The notes under the pieces are model-generated. The model saw only the letters and a list, made by a program, of their open reading frames with translations. It did no database searches and had not been told where the DNA came from. The translations under genes were made by a program, and so were the position numbers. From the NCBI GenBank assembly GCA_031550925.1, contig JAVBOE010000017.1:21384-85383 (forward strand): a stretch of 64,000 bases of DNA, read 5' to 3'. This document shows positions 22,487-63,776 of the stretch, one piece after another. Positions within the stretch are counted from its first letter, which is position 1, and every line of letters begins with the position of its first letter. This stretch comes from Bacteroidales bacterium (lineage in GTDB: Bacteria > Bacteroidota > Bacteroidia > Bacteroidales > UBA932).

Positions 22487-22577
22487 ACAATGTGTTAATG
22501 TGCTAATATGAGAAGGTGAGAATGAAAAGATGCACTAGCGGGTAGTATGACACAGAGAAAAATGTTTCTGCATGTTG
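22487..22577 (+). repeat. Upstream flank module of family-A repeat (copy 1), direct repeat of 26643-26729
   Basis: acaatGtgttaatgtgctaatatgaGaaGgtgagaatgaaaa matches 26643 onward at about 39/42 positions. Looser homology continues up to the palindrome. Confidence 0.7.
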
Positions 22578-22645
22578 CCCCTAAATCCCCTAAAGGGGAC
22601 TTTAAACCAGCGCCTCCGGAAAGTCCCCTTTAGGGGATTTAGGGG
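22578..22645. repeat. Family-A palindromic element, copy 1 (about 25-bp arms cccctaaatcccctaaaggggactt / aagtcccctttaggggatttagggg)
   Basis: Perfect inverted arms around the loop taaaccagcgcctccgga. The palindrome extends outward as ctgcatgttg...taacatgcag (22568-22655). Confidence 0.9.
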
Positions 22646-22702
22646 TAACATGCAGTACGCTGAATGAGGAAATACCCTAAGTCGCTGTACTCTCTTTTTC
22701 GC

Positions 22703-26642: not shown

Positions 26643-26729
26643 ACAATATGTTAATGTGCTAATATGAAAATGTGAGAATGAAAAATCCAGTTCATGGGTT
26701 GATATTACTCCAAAAAGCCCAGCATGATG
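26643..26729 (+). repeat. Upstream flank module of family-A repeat (copy 2)
   Basis: Direct repeat of 22487-22577 (acaatAtgttaatgtgctaatatgaAaaTgtgagaatgaaaa...). Confidence 0.7.
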
Positions 26730-26799
26730 CCCCTAAATCCCCTAAAGGGGACTTTTTCCGGAGGTACTGGTTTAAAGTCCCCTTTAGGGGATTTAGGGG
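26730..26799. repeat. Family-A palindromic element, copy 2 (loop inverted relative to copy 1)
   Basis: Arms are identical to copy 1. The loop tttccggaggtactggttta is the reverse complement of the copy-1 loop apart from 2 substitutions and 2 extra T. Confidence 0.9.
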
Positions 26800-26954
26800 C
26801 AATTACAAAGTGCTAAATTCAACATCTTACATACATTCAGGAGATGTCTCACTACGTTCAACATGGCCTATGTTTTCGCTGTACACATATCGCAATACGC
26901 TGCGCCCCCTTTTTCGTGATACTTGATACTTGTGTTTTGATACTATTCAGCCTT

Positions 26955-51040: not shown

Positions 51041-51130
51041 CTTCAAAGTAGCACGACACATGTATCACGTATTACGATATGTAGAACTATAGAATAACAT
51101 ATCGAGCAAAGCGAAAAGTCTGCATGTTTG

Positions 51131-51196
51131 CCCCTAAATCCCCTAAAGGGGACTTTTGGAAGTGCAGGTTTAAGTCCCCTTTAGGGGATTTAGGGG
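51131..51196. repeat. Family-A palindromic element, copy 3
   Basis: Same arms as copies 1 and 2. The loop ttttggaagtgcaggtttaa has copy-2 orientation. It is preceded by family-C-like (51045-51080) and family-B-like (51101-51117) modules. Confidence 0.9.
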
Positions 51197-51253
51197 CAAC
51201 TTAGAATGCTAAATTGCCATAGTTTAACAGGGGCTTCTTCGTTCGGAGTGACA

Positions 51254-59393: not shown

Positions 59394-59404
59394 CAGAAAA
59401 AAAG

Positions 59405-59488
59405 CCCACCCTAACCCTCCCGGAGGGAGGGGATTGGTTTTTTCGTCGATTAGAGCTCCCTCTCTTTTGGAGAGGGTTGGGGAGAGGC
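59405..59488. repeat. Two family-E GC-rich hairpin elements (59405-59437 and 59455-59488)
   Basis: ccctccc-gga-gggaggg followed by ccctctc-ttttg-gagaggg plus ttggggagagg. The second overlaps the 3' end of the HD-domain CDS. The first, on the minus strand, is followed by gggcttttttt and so resembles a terminator. Confidence 0.85.
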
Positions 59489-60718
59489 TTTCGGATAACA
59501 CAAAATATACTTGCGGGTTACCTTTGAAAAAGCAACAGCTTCTAAGATATCCGAAACTTCTGTAACGTCTTTCAGCTCTCCGTTGTTGAATAGAATTTTT
59601 ATGGGATTGTCGCTTTTTGCGTATGCCTTATTGCTAACATCGGTGTGTGTTACAAAGTAGCTGATGTTGTTTTCTGATATGGACAGCCGCTTCTGTACTT
59701 TTTGCTTTTCTTCGTTTACCCTTTTCTCGCTGAATGGTTCGTTGCTCATTTCAACTCTGAATAGCTTTCGCGAAAGCAAGGATTGACAAAGGTCTGATAG
59801 CACCTTGTCATGATGATTTGCCCAAACCGATATGGCGCAATCAACATCGGCATCGGTAAGCTGTGCAAAGTGTTTTAGTGGACAATCTGGAGAATTATCT
59901 ATACAGCGAAATTCTTCAATAGTAAAGGCATTATGTAAAAAGAAATCCAGCGAAGGCGACGCGAAAAGTTGCTCTCCTTCACGAACCAGCTCTTTAGCTC
60001 GTTGCAGTATTTTTATGAGCAGCTGTTCTGCCGCTATTACGGTTTTATGAAGGTAAACCTGCCAATACATGAGGTGGCGCGAAATGAGAAACTTCTCGAT
60101 AGAGTAGATGGCTTTTGCTTCCACAACCAACTCGCCATCGCTCACGTTCAGCATTTTTATTATACGTTCGAGCCCAATCATACCCTCTGCAACACCGGAG
60201 AAAAAGCTGTCGCGACTCAGGTAGTCAAGCCTGTCAACATCAAGTTGGCTAGATACTAGCTGATGTAAAAACCGTTTGTAATATGAGCCGTTAAAAATCT
60301 GCAAAGCCATATCCAGTCGTCCGTTGAGCTGCCTGTTCAGCTCGTTCATTAGTAGTAGCGACAGCTCTTCATGGTCTATATTTTCAACAATGCTGTATTC
60401 CAGCGTATGGCTGAAAGGCCCGTGCCCAATGTCATGTAGCAGAATGGCACATTGAGCCGCCTCTTTTTCTTCGTCAGTAATTATGTGCCCCTTGGATTGT
60501 AGAGCTTCTATAGCTTGTGTCATTAAATGCATTGCGCCTAACGCATGTTGAAAGCGGTTATGGCACGCGCCCGGATATACTAGGTAAGTCAGTCCGGTTT
60601 GTTTTATGTTACGCAAACGTTGCATATATGGATGAGCAATCAGCTCATAAGCCATATTTGCCGGTATGTTAATAAACCCATGAACTGGGTCGTTGATGAT
60701 TTTTTGCTTGGGATACAT
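59450..60718 (-). CDS. HD-domain phosphohydrolase (dGTPase/SAMHD1-like superfamily)
   Basis: INDPVHGFI, RFQHALGAMHL, LLHDIGHGPFSH (HD motif), DVDRLDYLSRD. The last roughly 12 codons (ASPQPSPKEREL) and the stop are encoded by repeat E2b. Confidence 0.8.
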   Translation of the reverse strand: MYPKQKIINDPVHGFINIPANMAYELIAHPYMQRLRNIKQTGLTYLVYPGACHNRFQHALGAMHLMTQAIEALQSKGHIITDEEKEAAQCAILLHDIGHGPFSHTLEYSIVENIDHEELSLLLMNELNRQLNGRLDMALQIFNGSYYKRFLHQLVSSQLDVDRLDYLSRDSFFSGVAEGMIGLERIIKMLNVSDGELVVEAKAIYSIEKFLISRHLMYWQVYLHKTVIAAEQLLIKILQRAKELVREGEQLFASPSLDFFLHNAFTIEEFRCIDNSPDCPLKHFAQLTDADVDCAISVWANHHDKVLSDLCQSLLSRKLFRVEMSNEPFSEKRVNEEKQKVQKRLSISENNISYFVTHTDVSNKAYAKSDNPIKILFNNGELKDVTEVSDILEAVAFSKVTRKYILCYPKASPQPSPKEREL

Positions 60719-60783: not shown

Positions 60784-60901
60784 CACCTCACCCCTCATTC
60801 CCCTCTCCCAAGGAGAGGGGACGAATACACAGTTAAAACGGTGTGCGTTTACCTTCCAAGCCTGTTCCCCTCTCCTTGGGAGAGGGGTTAGGGGTGAGGT
60901 G
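60784..60901. mobile_element. Family-E composite palindromic (MITE-like) element, 118 bp, about 37-bp imperfect terminal inverted repeats
   Basis: The ends are cacctcacccct...aggggtgaggtg. Each arm holds a 9-bp hairpin: cccctctcc-caa-ggagagggg, and the inverse with loop ttg. The arms share identical 12-nt and 22-nt blocks. Confidence 0.8.
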
Positions 60902-60915
60902 TTGTCGTAGCCTGT

Positions 60916-60947
60916 CCTCCCTCCTTTGGAGGGAGCTAGAGGGAGGT
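60916..60947. repeat. Family-E-like hairpin cctccctcc-ttt-ggagggag plus ctagagggagg
   Basis: GC-rich hairpin directly after the composite element, about 60 nt upstream of the leuS ATG. Confidence 0.7.
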
Positions 60948-61007
60948 CCCTTTGTCCTTCCACCCAAATTCACTATCTTCGCATTCATTTTTTAAGTATA
61001 AGAAGGC

Positions 61008-63776
61008 ATGGAATACAATTTTCCCGAAATTGAGAAAAAATGGCAGCTGCGTTGGATTGCCGATAAGACCTATAAGGTTACCGAAGATACATCAAAACCG
61101 AAATATTATGTGCTCGATATGTTCCCTTATCCATCAGGAGCAGGCTTGCATGTAGGGCATCCGCTGGGATATATCGCATCGGATATATACAGCCGGTATA
61201 AACATCTCAAGGGGTTCAACGTGCTTCATCCTATGGGATACGATGCTTTCGGACTTCCGGCAGAACAGTACGCCATTCAAACGGGACAACATCCGGCAAT
61301 CACTACCGAAAAAAATATACAGCGCTATCGTGAGCAAATGGATAAGCTGGGCTTCTCCTACGATTGGAGCCGCGAACTCCGTACTTGCGACCCCTCATAC
61401 TACCATTGGACACAGTGGGCGTTTATTCAAATGTTCAACTCTTACTACTGTTATGATGAACAGCAGGCAAGGCCTATAGCCGAACTTATCAGTGTGTTTG
61501 AGCAGCAGGGAACGAAAGACCTCAATATTGCACATACCGAGGAACTATACTTTACAGCCGATGAGTGGAAAGCGAAAAGCGAAAAAGAGCAACAAGAAAT
61601 TCTGTTGAACTATCGTATAGCCTACAAGGGAAATACAATGGTGAACTGGTGTTCTGCCTTGGGAACCGTGCTGGCTAACGATGAAGTAAGCGAAGGCTTG
61701 TCTATTCGCGGCGGTTATCCTGTGGAGCAAAAGATGATGAGCCAATGGTGCTTGCGTGTATCGGCATACGCTCAACGATTGCTTGAAGGTCTTGATACCA
61801 TTGATTGGACAGATGCGCTAAAGGAAACGCAGCGCAACTGGATTGGGAGAAGTGAGGGAGCTGAGATACACCTCCCCCCTGCCCCCTCCCAAGGATGGGG
61901 CAGGGGGGAGGTGGTAGTTTTCACCACCCGTCCCGATACCATCTTCGGCGTAACCTTTATGGTACTTGCACCCGAGAGCGAATATGTTTCTCAACTAGTA
62001 ACTACAGAGCAAAAAACAGAGGTAGATAAATACCTTGAGGCTGTTAAACGCCGTACCGAGCGCGAGCGTATTGCAGACAGAAAAGTAACAGGTGTATTCA
62101 CGGGTTCATACGCTATCAACCCATTGAGTAACGAAGAGATTCCGATTTGGATTTCGGATTATGTATTGGCAGGCTATGGAACAGGTGCTATTATGGCTGT
62201 TCCAGGTCACGATAGCCGCGACTATGCCTTTGCTAAACACTTTAACCTGCCTATTATTCCGCTGATTGAAGGGTGTGATATATCTGAAGAAAGCTTCGAT
62301 GCCAAAGAAGGTATTATGATGAATTCGGGCTTCTTGAATGGCCTAACAGTAAAGGAAGCCATAGAAAAGACAAAGCAGTATATTGCCGAAAATGAGTTGG
62401 GTCGGGTTAAGGTAAACTACCGTTTGCGCGATGCTATCTTCAGTCGTCAACGCTATTGGGGAGAACCATTTCCGGTGTACTATAAGGATGGAATTCCTTA
62501 CATGGTGGATGAGAAAGATTTACCCATACAGCTTCCCGAAGTGGATAAGTTTTTGCCTACTGAAACGGGCGAACCGCCATTGGGTCGTGCAAAGGACTGG
62601 ACCTACAAAGGCTATCCGCTGGAGTTAAGTACCATGCCGGGTTTTGCAGGCTCGTCGGCATACTATCTGCGTTATATGGATCCGCATAACAGTAAGGAGT
62701 TGGTTTCTAAACAAGCCGATGAATACTGGCAGGATGTTGACCTTTACATTGGAGGCACAGAGCATGCTACGGGCCACTTGGTGTATAGCCGTTTCTGGAA
62801 TAAGTTTCTGTTCGACCTTGGTATCGCTTGCAAAGACGAACCATTTAAAAAGCTGGTTAACCAAGGAATGATACAGGGTCGGTCTAACTTTGTGTACCGT
62901 ATAAAGGGTACGAATAAGTACGTATCGCATGGATTGAAAGACCAGTATGATACTACAGAGATTCATGTTGATGTAAATATTGTAGAAAACGACATACTTG
63001 ATATAGAGAAATGGCGTGAATGGTCGCCCGAATATAAGGATGCCGAGCTGATACTAGAAAACGGTAAGTACGTTTGTGGTTGGGCGGTTGAGAAGATGTC
63101 GAAATCATACTACAACGTGGTTAACCCCGATGTTATGGTTGAGCGTTATGGTGCAGATACATTACGCATGTACGAAATGTTCTTGGGGCCATTAGAGCAA
63201 TCAAAACCTTGGGACACTAAGGGTATAGATGGCGTACATCGTTTCTTGCGTAAGTTTTGGCGCTTGTTCCACGATGATAAAAATGTATTGAATGTATCTG
63301 AAGACAAAGCAACAGACAAAGAGCTGAAAGTTCTTCATAAGACGATAAAGAAGGTACAGCAAGACATTGAAACCTTCTCGTTCAATACTGCCGTCAGCGC
63401 ATTTATGATTTGCGTAAACGAGTTGGGAGACCTGAAGTGTAACAAGCGCGAAATTCTTGAACCGCTAACTATACTGCTTTCTTCTTTTGCACCTCACATC
63501 TGCGAGGAGTTGTGGGAGATGCTAGGACATAAAACAAGCATAACTAAGGCGCAATTCCCCGAGCTAAACGAGAACTATCTGGTAGAAGATACGTTTGAGT
63601 ATCCGGTATCATTCAACGGTAAAATGAGGTTTAAAAAAGCCCTTCCGTTATCGCTTACCTCTGCCGAGGTGGAGAAAGAGGTAATGACAGATGAAAATAC
63701 AGCACGTTGGCTTGAGGGTAAAACACCCAAAAAGATAGTTGTTGTAGTTGGAAAGATTGTAAATATTGTGATGTAG
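61008..63776 (+). CDS. leuS: Leucine--tRNA ligase
   Basis: HVGH (HIGH) motif, [18 protein letters not shown] (CP1 editing domain), KMSKS. Confidence 0.97.
61869..61913 (+). repeat. Family-E palindromic element inside leuS, in frame (15 codons)
   Basis: Perfect 17-nt arms cacctcccccctgcccc/ggggcaggggggaggtg with the 11-nt loop ctcccaaggat. It begins on codon 288 and is translated as [15 protein letters not shown]. Confidence 0.85.

Follow-up and report, generated by a model that had tools for sequence, protein, structure and literature searches.

The leucyl-tRNA synthetase (LeuRS) gene, leuS, in a 64-kb stretch of Bacteroidales DNA (the window, from whose first letter positions are counted) contains a 45-bp palindrome (cacctcccccctgccccctcccaaggatggggcaggggggaggtg, 61869-61913), which lies in frame at a hairpin where 32 of the 120 closest LeuRS proteins (1057-1093 aa) carry an in-frame DUF559/REase_MTES_1575 nuclease domain (PF04480, PF18741) flanked by Pro/Gly-rich peptides. 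The junctions, AE[IL] / HLP...GEV / V[VA][VI]F (slashes mark the boundaries), are identical between alleles without the nuclease, which we call solo (the window and the metagenome loci L002 and L205-L207), and full alleles that have it (L001, L174). On balance, we lean towards reading the window 45-mer as such a cassette minus its nuclease, imported by gene conversion and now tolerated as a Pro/Gly-rich loop. The hairpin that it forms in the mRNA (about -47 kcal/mol) is a by-product and is not structurally conserved in relatives.

The palindrome and the LeuRS hairpin it occupies

The element starts with CACC, ends with GGTG, is strongly GC-rich in an AT-rich genomic environment and has no stop codon in any of its six translation frames. 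Its outer 17 nt are perfectly complementary, and the repeat finder (pair I10) reports longer arms of 21 nt, 95% complementary, around a 3-nt loop, each arm comprising an outer part and one half of an inner hairpin (Table 1). A calculation of our own puts the expected number of perfect inverted repeats of 17 nt, separated by a short spacer, at about 7e-5 per 64 kb; the 17-mer arm has 0.02 expected occurrences in dinucleotide shuffles of the window, and the 85-nt RNA around the element folds at -54.6 kcal/mol (z = -5.7), as well as which none of 200 shuffles folded. With shuffle expectations for arm and fold this negligible, a chance palindrome was rejected. The flanks (GAGATA on the left, GTAGTT on the right) show no direct repeat, so that there is no target-site duplication in leuS, nor was one seen at the intergenic copy 60784-60901 or at the metagenome copies L083 and L127 described below.

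In the 922-aa open reading frame (ORF) of leuS, Pfam recognises the LeuRS editing domain, the core of a class I synthetase and the anticodon-binding domain. The element lies between the conserved WIGRSEGAE and FTTRPDT blocks, at a site alignable to a 21-residue stretch of the Thermus thermophilus LeuRS structure 1H3N, which we take to be the first β-hairpin of the CP1 editing domain, directly after the N-terminal linker strand. Among the 120 closest LeuRS proteins (74-100% identical to the window LeuRS), AE[MIL] and FTTR are 13 residues apart in 72, the segment being typically QFKVKDSDLEFTI and following the pattern xFKVKDSDxEFTI, against 17 residues in the window protein; in this alignment the 15 palindrome-encoded residues stand where relatives have about 11 native residues, so that four are gained on balance, and 33 bp of host sequence are gone from leuS at the element. 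The 13-residue form also recurs in 64 of the 72 readable leuS loci from named Bacteroidales genomes (at most 77% identical in that scan), with hosts that include Dysgonomonas, Parabacteroides, Paludibacter, Barnesiella, Bacteroides and metagenome-assembled genomes of Prevotellaceae, and we therefore regard the native hairpin as ancestral and the window form as derived. In more distant bacteria the segment spans 12-22 residues, a spread that fits a permissive loop. For the complete LeuRS, AlphaFold gave a model of low quality (pLDDT 61, pTM 0.43) because the alignment was shallow; it made visible only a strand-loop-strand around residues 279-306 and was not used for surface mapping.

A preliminary description, made from the window alone, had portrayed the element as a 45-bp unit with perfect 17-nt arms, inserted as 15 codons into a variable LeuRS loop at the start of the CP1 editing domain. 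Sequence and repeat finder agree on the unit and its arms, the element does run in frame from codon 288 within an intact ORF, and the ortholog lengths bear out the variability of the loop. The insertion itself holds as an in-frame net gain and fails as a clean insertion, native residues having been replaced.

DUF559 cassettes at the same hairpin

The cassette in the full allele of L001 has CACCTCCCCCTTGCCCCCTCCAAAGGAGGG at its left end, followed by the nuclease ORF, and CCCCTCCTTGGGAGGGGATTTAGGGGAGGTT at its right end, giving the order outer arm and inner hairpin, nuclease ORF, inner hairpin and outer arm. Its left arm, CACCTCCCCC..GCCCCCTC, is common to the window, L002, L205-L207 and L174. 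The full-length forms with this arm (L001, L174, L177, L203) encode the DUF559 nuclease, which does not count among the known transposases, and DUF559 is the only protein seen bracketed by these arms, the window not having been screened for Y1 transposases. All full forms are continuous ORFs with LeuRS; as no intein domain appears in the Pfam annotations of the full alleles and no intron RNA family of Rfam in L001, L203, L174 and L177, the nuclease appears to be translated as part of LeuRS. An intron was rejected on the same Rfam result, and an intein was rejected for the 45-mer as well, which encodes only 15 residues, starts with His, is followed by Val and sits in a protein where Pfam shows only LeuRS domains.

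A profile of 40 free-standing DUF559 relatives, compared with the PDB, matched 3HRL (E = 3e-27) and 3R3P (E = 3e-7), the latter being the catalytic domain of the homing endonuclease I-Bth0305I, and an AlphaFold model of the domain (pLDDT 87) matches 3HRL, 3R3P (TM 0.77) and Vsr. Published work groups DUF559 with the homing endonucleases of the Vsr-like EDxHD family (PMC3424549, PMC9403480, PMC3239194). The residues that are invariant in the family (E, D, H, D and others) are all retained in nine LeuRS-resident lineages, and judged by its sequence and modelled fold the resident nuclease is apparently functional.

The solo alleles L002, L205, L206 and L207, which come from four other assemblies, share the reading frame and the loss of native codons with the full alleles L001 and L174. 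The left and right arms of L002 are unequal in the same way as those of full cassettes, and full cassettes hold two complete inner hairpins; together, these two features make a deletion between the inner hairpins a better explanation of the solo form than an insertion into a loop. An assembly artefact, a chimera or a chance palindrome we consider scarcely credible. The window does derive from a single assembly, and a single NCBI contig, probably that very contig, is the source of the one identical protein recorded; but chance expectation is negligible, the frame is intact through the element, and four independent assemblies of metagenomes contain homologous solo alleles with identical junctions, which effectively refutes an artefact of assembly.

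In the origin that we favour, the full cassette, a DUF559 ORF (Vsr-like, EDxHD type) in the leuS frame, would target the tip of the first β-hairpin of the CP1 editing domain and replace 11 native hairpin codons, its GC-rich, stop-free arms serving as Pro/Gly-rich linkers. It would first have spread between leuS alleles by gene conversion, which in the relatives is suggested by a co-conversion tract and a patchy distribution and which we infer for the window lineage. The inner hairpins, which are also direct repeats, would then have recombined with deletion of the nuclease ORF, leaving outer arm, one hairpin and outer arm, or 45 bp. This remnant would be translated as a 15-residue loop at a length-tolerant position, and the solo allele would be immune to re-cutting since the native target sequence is gone.

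The evidence for mobility comes from closely related hosts. When the site is masked, the LeuRS tree shows full and solo alleles interspersed with native alleles. A native and a full protein (P0010 and P0005) differ by only 4 residues outside the site; their genes (L204 and L203), two alleles of one species from the sister samples ERZ27245258 and ERZ27245259 and about 2.5% divergent overall, have 9 differences in the 37 nt directly upstream of the cassette and none in the 78 nt downstream. In this pair, the one examined for co-conversion, the pattern is, as read from the alignment, that of a one-sided co-conversion tract. Another pair, P0033 and P0061, differs by 7 residues outside the site and carries distinct cassettes, with different flanks and nuclease domains less than 50% identical. 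This patchiness points to repeated import by recombination of leuS alleles, as in homing; a lost cassette cannot restore the native hairpin.

The solo hairpins form a series in stability, from -46.8 kcal/mol in the window, where the stem is perfect, to -35.5, -34.7, -25.7 and -25.3 kcal/mol, and relatives such as RFSLSPQGKGEFTVF resemble further-decayed copies. The series and the decayed loops fit invasion, nuclease loss and subsequent drift, a course on which the window copy would be young. They speak at the same time against a selected RNA hairpin in leuS, acting as attenuator, pause site or mRNA stability element, which we hold to be very improbable: the stem is missing from most orthologs and decays in relatives without compensatory changes. 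It is indeed very stable and is followed by GUAGUUUUC, with 5 U in its first 8 bases, which is loosely terminator-like; yet it went uncalled by a consensus terminator scan, no Rfam family scored above threshold (only sub-threshold matches to animal microRNA hairpins were obtained), and the GTTTTC after the stem is a conserved Val-Phe codon pair of the native protein. The T-rich stretch itself lies at 61914-61922 (GTAGTTTTC, 5 T in the first 8 bases), after the 17-bp GC stem, and is sense-oriented within an essential gene; the absence of a call there is explained by a loop that exceeds the limit of the scan. Stem and following bases may affect transcription or translation and may slow ribosomes or polymerase.

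The palindrome could instead have come first, with the solo form as an older resident and landing site for DUF559 genes and the window as an unoccupied target. DUF559 genes are tied to these hairpins in many contexts and arrangements, different DUF559 lineages occur at the same leuS hairpin, and arm modules are common to cassettes with different cargo. Against this order of events, several full cassettes (P0061, P0086 and P0063 types) keep native-like strand residues on both sides (xFKxx ... xTVF), which indicates that these types entered the native hairpin independently, rather than an HLPLAPS palindrome, and full cassettes hold two whole inner hairpins instead of a single split one. We rate this possibility as quite unlikely.

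Further variation was observed among the cassettes. The near-identical LeuRS-DUF559 proteins of the P0086 (1087 aa) and P0087 (1074 aa) types differ in whether they possess one unit of 13 residues (DLSPNPSTEGERE, 39 bp) that adjoins the left arm, and one variant, P0115, has the unit PTPTLPQGEGE twice, so that single hairpin units seem to be gained and lost individually. In L119 (1050-1870, minus strand), a free-standing DUF559 gene has a direct repeat of about 45 bp with the hairpin CCCCCGCCGGCGGGGG on both sides and the CACCTCCCCC arm directly upstream, an arrangement unlike the inverted arms in leuS. P0255, P0251, P0276, P0330 and others are predicted proteins of 90-160 aa, encoded on contigs of up to 1 Mb, that span only this part of the LeuRS editing domain; they may reflect leuS genes split or frameshifted near the site, or artefacts of gene calling. 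Protein searches with short queries retrieved only short proteins and not LeuRS-embedded copies, and they were not used for counts of solo alleles.

A dispersed family of palindromes

A relative of the 45-mer is an intergenic copy about 1 kb upstream (60784-60901), whose two arms each contain one inner hairpin, CCCCTCTCC-CAA-GGAGAGGGG and CCCCTCTCC-TTG-GGAGAGGGG. Collapsed between these hairpins, it becomes a 52-mer to which the leuS 45-mer aligns with 37 of its 45 positions identical, at an alignment score reached by none of 2000 shuffles, and the likeness between the two that the preliminary description had proposed is thereby upheld. The termini CACCTCNCCCC occur in the window only in these two elements, plus one match with 1 mismatch.

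Table 1. Coordinates of leuS, its palindrome and related hairpin units in the window.
Feature	Position	Strand	Remarks
leuS, leucyl-tRNA synthetase (host gene)	61008..63776	+	922 aa; Pfam LeuRS domains
45-bp palindromic element, in frame in leuS	61869..61913	+	encodes 15 residues, aa 288-302
Left arm	61869..61889	+	outer arm CACCTCCCCCCTG and left half of inner hairpin CCCCCTCC
Right arm	61893..61913	+	GGATGGGG and CAGGGGGGAGGTG; reverse complement of left arm, 1 mismatch in inner part
Element ends			CACCTCNCCCC...GGGGNGAGGTG
118-bp intergenic copy of the palindrome family	60784..60901	.	outer arms CACCTCACCCCT / AGGGGTGAGGTG, 44-nt centre
GC-rich hairpin unit adjoining the 118-bp copy	60905..60950	.	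CCTCCCTCC-TTT-GGAGGGAG...; looser relative
Two hairpin units between ychF and the HD-domain gene	59400..59480	.

Beyond the window, a metagenome scan for CACCTCCCCCNNGCCCCCTC yielded at least 120 loci, at least 53 of them of low GC; many of the high-GC matches look like low-complexity sequence or other repeat families. Among the matches listed, the arm is followed by the inner hairpin in 39 of the 62 occurrences at the 53 low-GC loci, 45-bp solos are found at L127 and L197, and forms of about 120 bp with both ends at L083, L199 and L201. The dispersed family postulated at the outset is thus real, its arms occurring outside leuS both in the window and in metagenome contigs. Copies that lie in frame in other protein-coding genes, as had also been anticipated, are read from the contigs as follows: the L083 copy sits whole in the EPSP synthase gene, family members occur in the Mfd/TRCF gene at the same site in two contigs and in the genes of an MgsA/RarA-like ATPase and a DegT aminotransferase (low-GC contigs), and L090 has a copy at a second leuS site, near residue 155. 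Particularly rich is L088 (metagenome contig Ga0155294_125), where leuS, on the minus strand and encoding a protein about 41% identical to the window LeuRS, has palindromes at four sites: a DUF559 cassette at the equivalent hairpin and three further in-frame peptides, TPPPSPLQRKGKSKVLPFGEDIGGV, NLPPTPFPRKGGRITKVLPLGEDLGEV and TSPQLSPKGREKLKSPPLGEVGGG. In the Mfd/TRCF genes of L183 and L199, palindromic elements of about 120 bp stand in frame directly before ...FSTEPQLSY, and their sequences and reading frames differ; different inserts at the same position suggest that this is another site of recurrent insertion, as in leuS.

[quoted passage not shown] In its favour are the low-GC metagenome loci with their 45-bp and ~120-bp forms, the nuclease-free in-frame copies in EPSP synthase, Mfd, MgsA/RarA, DegT and the leuS sites of L090 and L088, the perfect arms of the window element, whose left 27 nt are identical (27/27) to the terminal repeat of the L083 copy, and the presence of a related copy only 1 kb away. 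It has to account, however, for junctions, a frame and a loss of 11 codons in common with nuclease-bearing alleles in several other LeuRS lineages, which independent hops are not expected to reproduce, and for the lack of a visible target-site duplication and of a known transposase partner. We consider it unlikely, if clearly the strongest of the rivals. The colonisation of a permissive loop accordingly survives in part: a member of a dispersed family does occupy a variable loop, while a fresh hop of the neighbouring copy is improbable because both junctions are identical to those of DUF559-bearing leuS alleles of other lineages.

Several observations nevertheless weigh against descent from a nuclease cassette. 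The lineage of the window would once have held a full cassette, a step that we infer, and the 64-kb window is without a DUF559 gene (in tblastn, nine DUF559 inserts aligned to nothing but the palindrome-encoded flanks). In the window element the right arm (GGGGCAGGGGGGAGGTG) complements the left arm exactly, unlike the right arm of the known full cassettes (GGGGATTTAGGGGAGGTG), and the left 27 nt of the element are those of the end of a nuclease-free copy in another gene; the arms may therefore originate from another member of the family or owe their sequence to conversion by one, or an independent insertion may have occurred at the same junction. The nuclease activity and the target of the DUF559 members are predictions from sequences and models. 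The DUF559 domains of the P0059 group are 60% identical to copies in other genes and less than 50% to those of other LeuRS groups, which weakens the model of a single site-specific homing enzyme, and the LeuRS-resident domains do not clearly form one clade in a neighbour-joining tree that is shallowly resolved and built from biased sampling. Finally, free-standing DUF559 genes with such hairpins occur in other arrangements (L119, L154).

Two further groups of repeats in the window deserve mention. The hairpin unit at 59455-59480 provides the 3' end of the HD-domain ORF 59450-60718 (minus strand), namely its final 11 codons (SPQPSPKEREL) and its stop, a second case in the window of a palindrome contributing coding sequence. 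Intergenic copies of another repeat family, with the same design of outer arm and inner hairpin, lie at 22568-22655, 26728-26801 and 51128-51199; the layout is GCCCCTAAATCCCCTAAAGGGGAC ... 16-18 nt ... reverse complement, and their motif CCCCTAAATCCCC resembles the right arm of the DUF559 cassette, GGGGATTTAGGGG.

Relation to known elements and significance

Rickettsia has been known since 2000 to have palindromic elements in frame in essential genes, and to our knowledge it has so far been unclear how such elements move and why they are tolerated; we know of no nuclease-bearing full-length form of these Rickettsia palindromic elements (RPEs), which are roughly 100-150 bp long, compared with the 45-bp unit here. 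Like the family described above, RPEs are dispersed palindromes that occur between genes and also in frame within them, essential genes among these, and there contribute a stretch of peptide; of the 526 RPEs of R. bellii, 53 lie inside protein-coding genes (PMC1458961). The analogy, drawn in the preliminary description, appears apt given the in-frame copies read in several protein-coding genes besides leuS. It is an analogy of design and location, with differences: the window host belongs, by its closest LeuRS relatives, to the Bacteroidales and is certainly no Rickettsia, the element is GC-rich in an AT-rich genome, and the 45-mer replaces native residues instead of merely adding to them.

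With regard to the nuclease, the known EDxHD (Vsr-like) homing endonucleases, such as I-Bth0305I, reside in group I introns, beside split inteins or as free-standing genes (PMC3239194, PMC2677866). The leuS DUF559 domains are homologous to them in sequence and predicted fold, and share with them a fixed site in a conserved gene, presence or absence in near-identical hosts and an adjoining co-conversion tract. Unlike them, the nuclease lies within the frame of the host protein, with no intron or intein detected and with hairpin-bearing inverted repeats around it, and the 45-bp window copy has no capacity to encode a nuclease. The nearest precedent that we found is the ShiLan domain in a phage DNA methylase, which is open in the host frame, has neither intein nor intron and shows homing-like evolution (PMC11855218); it, too, is an unspliced in-frame insertion thought to loop out of the host protein. 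Its HNH nuclease, however, is encoded in a different frame from the host, whereas the leuS DUF559 is in the host frame and of another family, and ShiLan is without palindromic arms or miniature derivatives.

Among non-autonomous repeats, MITEs resemble the element in being short, with terminal inverted repeats (here 21 nt, 95%) and no transposase, and the 118-bp and ~120-bp forms share the ends of the 45-mer. The QMITEs of Coxiella are short and mostly intergenic, and some lie in frame in ORFs or give them C-terminal residues and a stop (PMC5896051), as does the window unit at 59455-59480. Unlike in MITEs, no target-site duplication was seen, no transposase partner of the insertion sequence type is known, the sole coding partner seen is DUF559, and each terminal repeat of the palindrome family contains a hairpin of its own. 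REP sequences and bacterial interspersed mosaic elements (BIMEs) bear at one end a conserved tetranucleotide, GTAG or CGTC, are extragenic and are associated with RAYT transposases (PMC3733652). They have in common with the present family short GC-rich palindromes in many copies, composite units and a dedicated nuclease-type gene flanked by repeats; the 45-mer, by contrast, starts with CACC and is intragenic, and the associated protein has a Vsr-like PD-(D/E)XK-type fold and is not a tyrosine (HUH) transposase. Membership in the REP/RAYT system was rejected, given the lack of a GTAG or CGTC end and the location inside the leuS ORF.

In our search of the literature, no description was found of DUF559 cassettes or of these palindromes in Bacteroidales genes. 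DUF559 domains with similar flanks are also nested in UDP-GlcNAc 2-epimerase, a RecG-like helicase, and MetH and BirA fragments. Tentatively, and with less assurance than for the origin of the window copy, we propose that the palindromes and their relatives are decayed and intact forms of an undescribed bacterial mobile element, an in-frame, unspliced homing cassette. In such an element, a Vsr-like (EDxHD) nuclease with hairpin-bearing, stop-free repeats would enter essential genes at conserved loops (in LeuRS, and probably also in RecG-like helicase, MetH, BirA and UDP-GlcNAc 2-epimerase), be expressed with the host protein and, upon loss of the nuclease, leave behind palindromic peptides like those of RPEs.

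An RPE-like phenomenon is herewith seen in Bacteroidales, with a candidate mobilising enzyme attached. For annotation, Pro/Gly-rich segments and nested DUF559 domains carry the risk of being taken for assembly errors, fusions or species-specific insertions. If the proposal is true, the leuS alleles of sister samples, whether native, full or solo, would be directly testable reagents, and the cassettes would represent a third home, besides introns and inteins, for a homing nuclease inside an essential gene. They would then offer a concrete origin and a mobilising enzyme for in-frame palindromic elements, and a route by which selfish DNA may make new loops in conserved proteins.

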